DNA from: Schmidtea polychroa
Taxonomy: Eukaryota
Length of the DNA stretch: 64,000 bases
Direction of reading: 5' to 3'
Assembly (NCBI GenBank): GCA_044892525.1
Contig: CM097885.1
Span: 193,006,001-193,070,000 of the forward strand
The number at the start of each line of letters is the position of its first letter. Position 1 is the stretch's first letter. The translations under genes and the position numbers were made by a program. Below the pieces are notes generated by a model. It searched no databases. It was not told where the DNA came from and saw nothing but the letters and a program-made list of their open reading frames with translations. Positions 4,082 through 9,800 of the stretch are shown here, in pieces.

Positions 4082-6877
4082 ATGACTGAAGATTGGATCA
4101 GTAAGTTTAATTATAAACTTGATTTCATAATGAATTTTTTAAATGTTAAATTTTATGATAATAATGCCAATAGGGGGAAGGATAATAAGAAAAATTTAAC
4201 ATTTCATAATAAGACTTCCTATAATAGTAAATTACCATTTAGTAAACCTCAAAGCTATTGTAATTATTTATCTTATGCTAATAATAAGAATAAATTTTTA
4301 TATAATAAATCTAAATTTGTAGAAAAGGTGAATAAAAATAATCCAAGTTTGAATCATAGTCCAAATAATTATTTACCTAAAAATTTTTCATATAACACAA
4401 ATATGAATAGCAAAGATTCAGCTTTAAATCGTAGATCAAATAATTATTCTTGTAATTTACCATTTTGTGAAAATGTGAATGAGAATGGAAGCTTTAATAA
4501 TTTCTATTTAAATGGAACAGATAATGATATAAAGGATAATTACGATAATAGAGATGGTAAATCTTCAGGAAAGAATTTCATAAGCCAAAATTTTTCCGGA
4601 TTAACTTCTAATAATAAAAATGTTCCTAAATTTCGTAAAAATGAATTAAATAATAACAAAAACCAAAATTATTATAAAAGTAATTTATTTTCAAAACCAA
4701 AAAATTTCAAAATAAATAATGGGTCTTCTGCTGATCCTGGATTGCTTTCTGATTTACGTGGTTCTGGCCTAAAAGTAATACTTAATAATAATACTCGAAA
4801 AGTAATATTAAACTTACAGGATTTAAAAAGTTCTAAATTACAAAAGGCTAAATTGGATAATTTAAACATATCCAATTTAGAAAATGAAAATTTTAAATAT
4901 AAAAATTTTAAAATCGCCAAAAATACTAATTCAGAAAACCTTGATGGCAAAATTAAATTTAAAAAAGAAAATTTATCAAATTCTAAATTTAATTTTCAAA
5001 ATAAAGAAATTTCAAATATAAATTCTAAAAATTTGAAAAATTTTGAAAATCGGCAAAAATCTTGGGGAAATGACTCTGAAGCTGGAAGTAATAATAAATT
5101 GAATATATTTCGAGTCTTAAAACCTAAAGAAAAGACCATTTTCTTTAAAACTTTCCCTGCGATAATTAAGGCCCTCAAATTAAAGGAGACCCCGCAGAAA
5201 TTCAAAAAGCTAAATGCTGAGTTGAGCAGCATCACTGATGTTGCCAATCCTCTAAAAATAGAGGGATTGGTTGGCTATTTTTATAGGAACGGCAATGTAT
5301 GCGTAAACATAAATTTAGGGTTGACCAACAAGAAGCCCTCAAAATCTCAGACTGGCCCGGGGGTTATTTTTAGGACCTCTATTATTGAGTCGGGTATTGT
5401 AACGGCATCCAATAATAGAGGCGAATTTTTCAAAGCGCCTGCAACAATTAAGAAATTCTTGTTTGTTCTTTCGACTCATCTTTCTGAGACCTCGTCCATA
5501 GGGAACACCAAAGTTCGAGGGGAACAAATAAATATTGCGCTTAACTTACTTAAAAAGCAAGGGACTCTACCAGACTACTTAGTAAGGTCGCAAATAAAAT
5601 ATCAAGACGGTGACTTTGTCATGCTAGACCTTCTTGGCGATGACGCTCCCAGTAGTACGAGTTCAGCGGTTAGAACGTTGGAGCTTTCTCGGTCGCAAGT
5701 GCGCGATCTTTATAAATCCTTCCCAGAAATTTCTGAATTGCTCTTCACTGAAAACATCACAGAGAGTCCTGAGAAATTAATAGAGCTAATTGAAAGGTTA
5801 AAATCAGAAAAAGGGTTTCCCGAGCAGATCTCATTTGTGGGGGGTAAACTTATAAAAACTATTAAAATAAATAACAAAGAGACATCGAATTCTGAAAGCC
5901 AATCAGACATTATGTTTAATCTTGGCTTGTTAAACTTCATCGAAATGTCCGAAAAAGATGAAGTATTAAAATCATTATTGCGCCAGCCAAAATCTTCAAC
6001 TAAGCTGATTAATGTCATTTTCCACCTTAATTACCTACAATTGAAGGGTGAACTTAGACATATTAAAAATGGAACATATGGCGATTATGTTTACAACTAC
6101 ATCCGTAATTGTCTGTTGTTATACTCTGTCACAGACATAGATAATTGTAGCTCACTCTGCCTTGAGAATTTCGAGAGTTGGGCACCCAGCATGACAGATG
6201 CATTACCTTCCCAGTCTTATCATTTCTCTAGTTGCAAAGAGAGAATTCTGAAGCTTCGACAATGGAAGCTGTCAAACGAAATTGACACCCTACACAACAT
6301 CATTTCCCCTGAAACCATAAGAGATGTCAATAGATTTCTTGACAAAGTTGATGAAGCTTACCCACAAAAGGCTGTCCAACTAGGTCTTCTTGGAAAATTA
6401 GGAAAAATGATTAATGAGACTGCACATGAGTCAGATGTGAAGGAGATGAGTCGTGCAAAAAGATTCCTCTTCTTTGTCATTAGAGACAAAAAGAAATTTC
6501 TATTCAACAATAACTTTTCTTATCGCATCCCACAACTTTGTAGAAAAATCTGCACACCTGGTATGGCCAATCACATAACAGATATTCTTGAAAGCCTTAA
6601 CACTACAATTGACAAAAAAGGCATTGATCAGAATAAGAACAAACCTGACTGTCATGCACCCGAGGAAGCACTTGTAGTGGAACCTTGTTATTCTGTGAGT
6701 GATGCTGATCTCTTAGACACGATCGAAGATGACAATAGTAGTCAAAAACAATGCCTTGACACTGACATTGATAAAACACCATCAACGCCTGAGGTGATCA
6801 ACAGCGACCAACTAGAACTCCGAAAAACAAACATATCCAGTAGGACGACTAGACAAACCGCACATAAAAGTAAATGA
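4082..6877 (+). CDS. ORF1 of A1, 931 aa, unknown function (Asn/Lys-rich N-terminus, conserved central and C-terminal region)
   Basis: Open in all four A copies; a diverged homologue is open in B. No recognised domain. Confidence 0.85.
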   Translation: MTEDWISKFNYKLDFIMNFLNVKFYDNNANRGKDNKKNLTFHNKTSYNSKLPFSKPQSYCNYLSYANNKNKFLYNKSKFVEKVNKNNPSLNHSPNNYLPKNFSYNTNMNSKDSALNRRSNNYSCNLPFCENVNENGSFNNFYLNGTDNDIKDNYDNRDGKSSGKNFISQNFSGLTSNNKNVPKFRKNELNNNKNQNYYKSNLFSKPKNFKINNGSSADPGLLSDLRGSGLKVILNNNTRKVILNLQDLKSSKLQKAKLDNLNISNLENENFKYKNFKIAKNTNSENLDGKIKFKKENLSNSKFNFQNKEISNINSKNLKNFENRQKSWGNDSEAGSNNKLNIFRVLKPKEKTIFFKTFPAIIKALKLKETPQKFKKLNAELSSITDVANPLKIEGLVGYFYRNGNVCVNINLGLTNKKPSKSQTGPGVIFRTSIIESGIVTASNNRGEFFKAPATIKKFLFVLSTHLSETSSIGNTKVRGEQINIALNLLKKQGTLPDYLVRSQIKYQDGDFVMLDLLGDDAPSSTSSAVRTLELSRSQVRDLYKSFPEISELLFTENITESPEKLIELIERLKSEKGFPEQISFVGGKLIKTIKINNKETSNSESQSDIMFNLGLLNFIEMSEKDEVLKSLLRQPKSSTKLINVIFHLNYLQLKGELRHIKNGTYGDYVYNYIRNCLLLYSVTDIDNCSSLCLENFESWAPSMTDALPSQSYHFSSCKERILKLRQWKLSNEIDTLHNIISPETIRDVNRFLDKVDEAYPQKAVQLGLLGKLGKMINETAHESDVKEMSRAKRFLFFVIRDKKKFLFNNNFSYRIPQLCRKICTPGMANHITDILESLNTTIDKKGIDQNKNKPDCHAPEEALVVEPCYSVSDADLLDTIEDDNSSQKQCLDTDIDKTPSTPEVINSDQLELRKTNISSRTTRQTAHKSK

Positions 6878-9800: not shown

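Follow-up and report, generated by a model that had tools for sequence, protein, structure and literature searches.

How does a retrotransposon make its enzyme when the frame that encodes it lies behind a single stop codon, in phase with the frame upstream and with no AUG near its start? The question is raised by a 64,000-nt stretch of the Schmidtea polychroa genome (NCBI GenBank assembly GCA_044892525.1, contig CM097885.1, positions 193,006,001 to 193,070,000 of the forward strand), here called the window and numbered from its first letter, in which retrotransposon copies of 8.3 kb follow one another head to tail inside a 5S rRNA gene cluster. For two-ORF elements of the LINE (long interspersed nuclear element) type, translation of open reading frame (ORF) 2 is a long-standing question, to which reinitiation (SART1, L1), 2A skipping and frameshifting are the solutions known so far. 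The initial annotation of the window proposed either readthrough of the stop codon or non-AUG reinitiation. Our analysis supports this interpretation and, of its two branches, favours readthrough. Judged from sequence comparisons, programmed readthrough of the UGA, giving a polyprotein of ~2470 amino acids (aa) with ORF1, protease, reverse transcriptase (RT) and endonuclease parts, is the probable explanation. The features on which the argument turns are the following.

4079-6877, + strand: ORF1, open frame with ATG at 4082, 931 aa; N-terminus rich in Asn and Lys, then a conserved core of ~500 aa and a basic tail that varies
6875..6877, + strand: UGA linking ORF1 and ORF2 in frame, context AAA-UGA-A
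6878..6883, + strand: spacer of 6 nt, A-R-R-Y-N-Y, two sense codons, same length in all families
6878-11494, + strand: ORF2, 1538 aa, no AUG before residue 152, terminates with TAA
7130..7417, + strand: Ulp1-type cysteine protease core (Peptidase_C48), PF02902 E 5.9e-07, above cut-off

The junction between ORF1 and ORF2

ORF1 and ORF2 are contiguous and in one frame, separated by the single TGA at 6875-6877, and the same arrangement, described in the initial annotation, was found at all seven junctions of the window. Besides 6875, A-type junctions lie at 15134, 23700 and 40359, B-type junctions at 32050 and 50018, and a further decayed copy at 56249. The two decayed junctions had been reported near 50018 and 56247; both are real, the second sitting at 56249, where the junction sequence is kept, yet a frameshift leaves only 25 open codons upstream. 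The 18-mer immediately 3' of the stop occurs 7 times in the window compared with 0.01 expected. The proposed size of the fusion agrees with the frames, as 931+1+1538 = 2470 aa.

Across the genome, 624 junctions carry TGA, compared with 7 matches with another triplet. Four of these 7 resemble element copies (CGA twice, TAA, TGG), and both long ORFs are intact in none of the four. A genome pattern search for a base other than A after the stop, for a purine at the last spacer position and for a base other than G in the GTG that follows the spacer returned 0 copies each (positive control, 49 matches). With 624 copies in diverged families, the stop can be ascribed neither to a sequencing error nor to a single nonsense mutation, and both were rejected. 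A genome-wide code in which UGA means Trp was likewise rejected: the eight family representatives contain 136 TGG and no internal TGA in ~17000 codons, and ORF2 of the B family terminates with TGA.

The stop is UGA rather than UAA in 8 of 8 family representatives. Among 61 control columns with a two-fold purine (Lys, Glu or Gln), none is all G and 11 are all A, and the genuine ends of ORF2 are mostly TAA. On this comparison of sequences the identity of the stop is under selection, since drift to UAA would keep termination, yet G stays in all eight families while the control columns do not hold it.

No AUG in the ORF2 frame overlaps or adjoins the stop; a near-cognate GUG stands there instead. 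The statement that the first in-frame Met of ORF2 lies past the catalytic His of the protease holds for A (His103 at 7184, first Met, residue 152, at 7331, and Cys169 at 7382) and for B (Met 180, His 105), and fails in five of the ten families found in this genome, where a Met occurs earlier at positions that are not shared (37, 39, 51, 56 and 81). The sequence confirms the out-of-frame ATGs noted at 6874 and 32055, which start frames of 15 and 13 codons, respectively; their frame is not kept in 2 of the 10 families. In 7 of the 10 an AUG overlaps the stop in the -1 frame, which closes after 15-18 codons. A role of this AUG as the start of a regulatory upstream ORF was rejected, as its frame and position vary across families, and it looks incidental.

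Related families and constraint on the junction

The stop, the spacer length and both arms of the hairpin described below are kept in ten families of the S. polychroa genome that adjoin 5S or tRNA-Arg, -Asp, -Gly, -Gln, -Phe, -Val, -Ser, -Pro, -Ala and -Thr genes. The genome pattern search gave 490 matches; the protein queries were the protease region and two distant sequences, a protease fragment and an ORF1 homologue, and only the best candidates were scored. Eight families surfaced in the protein search without use of the DNA pattern and two (the Val/Phe/Ser type and the L112 type) by the pattern only. Among the loci collected, which are redundant, 154 protease matches reduce to 35 distinct junctions, 33 of which read TGA-AR-N4-GTG in frame with the protease; of the two exceptions, one copy (window 49124) is rearranged and the other (L132) acquired a nonsense change later. 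Loss of the frame in related families, which the initial annotation had named as evidence against its reading, was thus not found.

Between families, identity is 36-59% in the ORF1 cores and 53-80% in ORF2, apart from one pair at 95% and one chimeric copy. In a codon alignment of 8 representatives, identity at fourfold sites is 0.87 in ORF2 codons 1-25 compared with 0.39 in ORF1 and 0.41 in the rest of ORF2, so that fourfold sites outside these 25 codons are near saturation. Invariant fourfold columns number 6 of 7 in ORF2 codons 1-25 and 3 of 142 elsewhere (p = 4e-8 by Fisher's exact test). Depending on the family, the last conserved ORF1 motif lies 71 to 131 aa before the stop and the protease 30 to 46 aa after it, whereas the spacer and hairpin lengths are fixed. 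As spacer and loop are not the same from family to family, the conserved arms are unlikely to stem from block gene conversion.

Chimeras between subfamilies or families occur in the window (1-3249, 32600-36721, 56234-56729) and beyond it (L069, L071, L103). A and B have near-identical RT stretches, and several copies change family, L103 inside the hairpin loop. At L159-L162 (G000:C1:5128500-6565900), four decayed junctions of an L112-like family are identical, each flanked by short frames, and are probably carried by another repeat.

A predicted hairpin downstream of the stop

Folding of the downstream RNA, suggested in the initial annotation as a search for a stimulator, yielded a predicted hairpin of 13-17 pairs at 6884-6942, beginning six bases past the UGA and under strong nucleotide-level constraint. 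GUGC-CUGCAUCAGUC (6884-6898) would pair with GACUGAUGCAG-ACA-GCAC (6925-6942), and the 18-mer that was noticed first is the 5' arm of this inverted repeat. Its parts, and its other copies in the window, are as follows.

6884..6900, + strand: 5' arm, GUGC and then the core CUGCAUCAGUC from 6888; includes the invariant GUG at 6884
6901..6922, + strand: loop, variable in sequence and constant in length; its invariant CU might form an alternative upper stem with the 3' arm
6923..6942, + strand: 3' arm, GACUGAUGCAG at 6925-6935, 3-nt bulge, GCAC at 6939-6942
15134..15201, + strand: junction and hairpin, copy A2
23700..23767, + strand: junction and hairpin, copy A3
32050..32117, + strand: junction and hairpin, copy B1, perfect 13-bp core
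40359..40426, + strand: junction and hairpin, copy A4, one G-A mismatch, upper stem longer
50018..50085, + strand: junction and hairpin, decayed B-type copy
56249..56316, + strand: junction and hairpin, decayed copy

The 70 nt past the stop have predicted folding energies of -24.9 (A) and -27.0 kcal/mol (B), with z ~-4.7 and 0 of 200 shuffles as good; across tests of A1 and B1 z ranges from -3.7 to -4.8. In 10 of 10 families these 70 nt out-fold all but 0-3 of ~198 sampled windows of the element. Conservation and not energy bears the argument, because the next 100 nt (6975-7074) fold at z -4.9 too and the z-score alone is therefore not special. Rfam contains no family that matches the hairpin, giving only a sub-threshold likeness to microRNA precursors.

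The stretch 6975-7074 forms a second predicted hairpin, which spans the start of the protease domain. The rearranged copy mentioned above (49124-49160) has RT-region sequence fused directly to the 3' arm of the first hairpin, as expected from a template switch there.

Pairing of the arms and homologues from other assemblies

In an alignment of 11 DNA junctions, pairing is possible in 92% of cells, compared with 21-40% for slid controls. Because the arms are nearly invariant on DNA, the pairing evidence consists of this complementarity and of changes deduced from proteins. Variants with an altered third arm codon gave only 4 matches in this genome, which look like chance. Codon positions 1 and 2 of Pro-Ala-Ser-Val, encoded by the 5' arm, face positions 2 and 1 of Thr-Asp-Ala-Asp, encoded by the 3' arm, so that pairing can be deduced from protein sequences.

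Other assemblies encode ORF2 homologues with RT identities as low as 40%. These start, for example, with MPASV, MPASD, MPAPV, MPTSV or MPVLT, where the initial Met is the reading of gene callers in protein records, not in DNA, and their second-arm residues are TDAD, SDAE, TGAD, ADVD or VGAD. The residues encoded by the arms change in pairs: S/D to P/G, A/A to T/V, and V/T to D/S and to T/V. The pairing test comprised 13 proteins and 3 genome types, giving 14 distinct arm pairs (P0008 and P0033 were dropped). Of 98 arm positions that can be deduced, 89 can pair compared with a shuffled mean of 81.4, and none of 20000 shuffles scored as high, in a statistic that ignores relatedness (~4-5 independent events) and for 13 proteins chosen from 44 N-termini for showing the signature. 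With Watson-Crick pairs only, 81 positions pair compared with 68.6 in shuffled sets.

In the tree, 9 of the genome families and 12 outside proteins form a clade of 21 with support 100, and 10 of the 12 carry the arm signature. The trees contain no named R5/LIN reference, all homologues found being unnamed. ORF1 homologues, which came from a HMMER library search after a word search with ORF1 had returned nothing, are 633-960 aa long in other assemblies, and none is fused to ORF2. ORF1 and protease stand together in 0 of 49 library representatives, from which the stop seems to be widely kept. A metagenome scan for DNA of relatives from other species returned nothing.

A second lineage with UGA-CUA

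The same genome contains a second, distant lineage of elements of the RLE (restriction-like endonuclease) type, in which TGA-CTA is the first in-frame stop before the protease-RT frame at 29 of 30 loci in four families. The 30 loci examined are from 43 found with P0062, and the remaining one has an internal nonsense change. Members of the lineage are L171-L200 (for example G000:C4:76707892-76714176), L155 and L158. The UGA falls at the position of a protease Trp, and long open frames lie upstream of the stop in most loci. UGA-CUA is a known readthrough context (PMC13517186, accessible part). The region after the stop shows no stable hairpin (-0.8 to -4.7 kcal/mol), and a search there with the hairpin model was empty. 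The upstream ORF has no likeness to ORF1. In the tree the lineage is a clade of its own. Related elements of the same host place a UGA with a recognised readthrough signal before the protease, which is circumstantial evidence for the hairpin clade.

The proposed mechanism and points that weigh against it

What the sequences themselves show is the shared frame, a UGA-A that never varies, a spacer fixed at 6 nt, two arms that are complementary and constraint on these at silent sites. If the hairpin folds in the cell as the model predicts, it would, at six bases past the UGA, likely stall terminating ribosomes. Once the UGA occupies the A site, the lower helix of four pairs would have been melted, and it would be the core stem, which begins at +11, that reaches the mRNA entry channel; the ~11-12 nt downstream of a stop in the A site fill that channel, according to the accessible part of PMC13517186. 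A minority of ribosomes would then insert an amino acid at the UGA, presumably by a near-cognate tRNA (Trp, Arg or Cys), and make the fusion, and the majority would stop and release ORF1 protein alone. The purpose may be an excess of ORF1 protein over enzyme, as for Gag and Gag-Pol. Ulp1 proteases cleave after Gly-Gly, and the Ulp1-type protease of the element may trim the polyprotein, for example at a Gly-Gly located behind the protease in 8 of 8 families.

Tested stimulators of UGA readthrough are stems 7-12 nt 3' of the stop in alphaviruses, furoviruses and kelch and 6 nt in SEPN1, with adenines at -1 and -2 (Firth 2011, PMC3159437, accessible text). The geometry of the predicted hairpin agrees with these, and we therefore count it for readthrough. 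Taking both lineages together, we see an even chance that a site-specific branch of RLE elements makes a Gag-Pol-like polyprotein by UGA readthrough, matures it with its own Ulp1 protease and has solved recoding twice, by the hairpin in the 5S/tRNA clade and by UGA-CUA at the protease Trp in the other.

Several points weigh against readthrough at the UGA of the 5S element, beyond the fold energy shared with the next 100 nt and the selection and relatedness of the proteins described above. The base after the UGA is always A, not C as in most UGA readthrough sites, and CUA follows the UGA only in the second lineage, the hairpin clade having neither C nor CUA/CGG, which are common but not required at such sites. 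Among the 11 aligned DNA junctions there are 0 two-sided (compensatory) changes and the shuffle control is not beaten, some copies have mismatches in the upper core, and 9 of the 98 arm positions deduced from proteins do not pair. Two proteins, P0012 and P0058, belong to the clade and lack the arm signature. Conservation of the frame depends partly on the fixed spacer length, and the invariant GUG could serve as a start. Further points of this kind come from SART1, which needs a downstream structure, and L1, which reinitiates unconventionally (PMC5972666, accessible text), and from the calicivirus case, in which reinitiation ignores the Kozak context and tolerates near-cognate codons (PMC5972666, PMC10275272, accessible text). 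All support for readthrough is at the sequence level.

Alternative explanations

The last points bear on the other branch of the initial interpretation, in which ribosomes would terminate at the UGA and, held by the hairpin, restart at the GUG (or another non-AUG codon) to make a separate ORF2 protein beginning Met-Pro-Ala-Ser. The GUG is invariant in the 624 junctions, and gene callers begin 13 outside proteins at the equivalent position (protein records only). Relative to the GUG, position -3 is a pyrimidine and position +4 a C. All 11 aligned copies pair the GUG with GCAC, so that its conservation needs no start role; no family or copy has AUG at its position (0 matches in the genome search, positive control 49 matches). 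Restarting leaves the selection of UGA over UAA unexplained and could not restore the Trp position of the UGA-CUA lineage, and we consider it unlikely. An AUG could also be added by RNA processing, through trans- or cis-splicing at the in-frame GAG/ACT within the hairpin, giving Met-Thr-Asp-Ala. Flatworm spliced leaders end in AUG and supply initiator AUGs (PMC9851317, accessible text), and an in-frame AG stands at ORF2 codon 16 in 9 of 10 families. The acceptor is, however, GAG and not YAG (GGG in one family), outside proteins have L, I, Q, V or A at the equivalent residue, and an ATG-ACT-GAT-GCA start, which retrotransposed trans-spliced RNA should leave in genomic copies, gave 0 matches. 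Among the matches listed, which were contigs only, none has a leader or splice joint at the junction, and one contig, from a run guessed to be RNA, spans 6473-6936 unspliced, which is weak evidence. As splicing accounts for neither the UGA nor the 5' arm, we give it very little credence.

It is comparably improbable that the hairpin has a non-translational role, such as binding of proteins in the retrotransposition complex, packaging or processing, with ORF2 made by weak leakage or internal initiation. On DNA, no covariation ties the hairpin to translation, and in 5 of 10 families at least one in-frame Met precedes the His; however, the distance from hairpin to invariant UGA-A is fixed across saturated families while flanking lengths vary. 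The UGA could finally encode selenocysteine, by an element 6 nt downstream as in SEPN1, with the same spacing (PMC3159437, accessible text), or be edited to a Trp codon, a suggestion we find scarcely credible. No Rfam selenocysteine insertion sequence (SECIS) element was found at the gathering score, nor at E up to 10 in the 3' untranslated region (UTR), and a SECIS pattern had 0 matches in 8 3' UTRs, two of them incomplete. The Cys at +2 is replaced by His, Tyr, Phe or Arg, and the UGA lies outside the predicted duplex.

Comparison with known systems

With gag-pol of murine leukaemia virus (MuLV) the element would share an abundant first product and an in-frame protease-RT polyprotein, besides a single stop and, as predicted, a 3' structure after a short spacer. 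MuLV has UAG, a pseudoknot after 8 nt and an aspartic protease in a long terminal repeat (LTR) virus, whereas the element has UGA, a predicted bulged hairpin after 6 nt and a cysteine protease in a non-LTR element. The alphavirus, furovirus, kelch and SEPN1 cases are similar in UGA, in a bulged stem of ~11-16 bp 6-12 nt downstream, in twin peaks of silent-site conservation and in a variable loop (PMC3159437, accessible text). They differ in that most have C after the UGA (kelch has A, as the element does) and longer loops; moreover, known UGA stem-loop systems show compensatory changes on DNA, which in the element are deduced from proteins only (PMC3159437, accessible text). SART1 and LINE-1 are two-ORF non-LTR elements, and SART1 needs an RNA structure 3' of the ORF1 stop; they are of the APE (apurinic/apyrimidinic endonuclease) type and their ORF2 has an AUG, overlapping as UAAUG or 63 nt downstream (PMC5972666, PMC10275272, accessible text). 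The present element differs from both in having UGA as the stop and no in-frame AUG near it.

Mutsu, of zebrafish, is of the Tx1/APE type, with an unrelated enzyme set. It resembles the present element in being a non-LTR element tied to 5S rRNA genes (PMC5340908). The element works like an RLE-type non-LTR retrotransposon, an R5/LIN-like member of the known NeSL clade (PMC4640811, PMC5035012, PMC7650587, accessible parts). An Ulp1-like protease is known in NeSL, and PF02902 scores above cut-off here. The original R5 description reportedly gave two ORFs. The planarian R5/LIN elements (LIN15_SM, LIN25_SM, LIN9_SM, R5) are likewise RLE non-LTR elements specific for multicopy RNA genes (Kojima & Jurka 2015, PMC4640811, accessible text), and the tRNA-Arg(ACG) sister family has the same 3' junction as LIN15_SM, before GCGTC, and a similar 3' end (PMC4640811, S6 figure). 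The targets given for R5/LIN are 28S, tRNA-Arg and tRNA-Glu; 5S rRNA is absent from the accessible text and supplements of PMC4640811, which likewise leave ORF structure, readthrough and a hairpin unmentioned. That most RLE elements have a single ORF, as the initial annotation remarked, agrees with what Kojima & Jurka 2015 state for Utopia (PMC4640811, accessible text).

The accessible parts of PMC5009743, PMC5972666 and PMC13517186 name reinitiation, frameshifting and StopGo for non-LTR elements and do not name readthrough. Our literature search found no readthrough in a non-LTR element, the original R5 description and the Repbase entries, which may mention an in-frame stop, being outside its scope, and no 5S-specific R5/LIN family, most subscription papers being outside its scope. 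On the sequence comparisons, the junction cassette is real and strongly constrained, and the recoding cassette and the 5S target appear undescribed in an element group that is known. If readthrough is correct, this would be the first structure-stimulated case in a non-LTR element, the gammaretroviral solution would extend to the oldest, endonuclease-targeted non-LTR branch, the otherwise unexplained Ulp1 protease of NeSL/R5 elements would have a possible job, and database ORF2 proteins of the group would carry a wrong start. The cassette measures 70 nt and has ten natural variants, for which readthrough and reinitiation predict opposite outcomes. The matter is also relevant to adapting site-specific retrotransposons for 5S/tRNA arrays, where the active enzyme may be the fusion.

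The element and its target site

The remaining features of the element and its target are listed here.

9245..10021, + strand: reverse transcriptase, non-LTR, Pfam PF00078 E 3.2e-26
10838..11250, + strand: Cys/His zinc motif, then PD-(D/E)xK-like endonuclease motif; zf-RVT E 0.0046, below cut-off
11495..12112, + strand: 3' UTR, terminates TGTTAT..TAATAAA
12113..12210, + strand: 5S rRNA gene, 3' part (from nt 22), target downstream of the element
3854..3951, + strand: 5S rRNA gene, 3' part, upstream of the element, followed by a shortened spacer and ORF1
20658..20776, + strand: intact 5S rRNA gene, uninterrupted target, Rfam RF00001, 109.9 bits

ORF1 matched no Pfam family, either as a single protein or as 22 aligned members; its best PDB sequence match was only E 0.019, and there was no Atlas match. 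In the protease, H103, W104 and D120 are invariant in 21 sequences. The endonuclease-like motif is conserved and was identified by eye against the PD-(D/E)xK pattern, with no profile or fold match, and a Pfam search of ORF2 gave no APE domain. In the B copy at 32050, ORF2 is interrupted by a frameshift near 32600-32736; other genomic B copies have an intact ORF2 of 1555 aa. Two probable, catalytically dead Ulp1-fold repeats follow the active protease (window 7590-8650, ORF2 residues 238-590; hhalign E 6e-4 to 5e-5, probability 28-68). Right behind the protease, at ~7515-7530 (ORF2 residues 213-217), a Gly-Gly(-Gly) is present in 8 of 8 families and in P0001 and P0002, and may be a candidate self-cleavage site.

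Element 3' ends abut nt 22 of the 5S gene in 6 of 6 cases in the window. Two subfamilies insert at nt 21/22 of 5S genes and are stacked head to tail (window 3854, 12113, 20372, 28938, 37326, 45597). The A-type copies begin in the spacer downstream of a 5S gene, with ~45 nt missing between two TCAG words (3952-4081 compared with 20470-20657 and 29036-29220); the missing segment has GT..AG ends and may be a spliced intron or reflect microhomology joining. For the B copy, the joint with the full spacer lies 5 nt before the start of a 5S gene. One A copy lies behind an intact 5S gene, an arrangement that could renew the target and explain tandem arrays, and the tRNA-targeting families likewise begin downstream of an intact gene. 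A GCAAAGCCGG..CCGA motif (~11890-11920) and the terminal TGTTAT..TAATAAA are common to the otherwise unalignable 3' UTRs of the families and are a possible RT recognition signal. Long ORFs that by eye resemble DNA polymerase B and further Polinton-type genes lie beside element copies at L157, L155 and L065 (G000:C1:310400-330300; C1:159888000-159897400).

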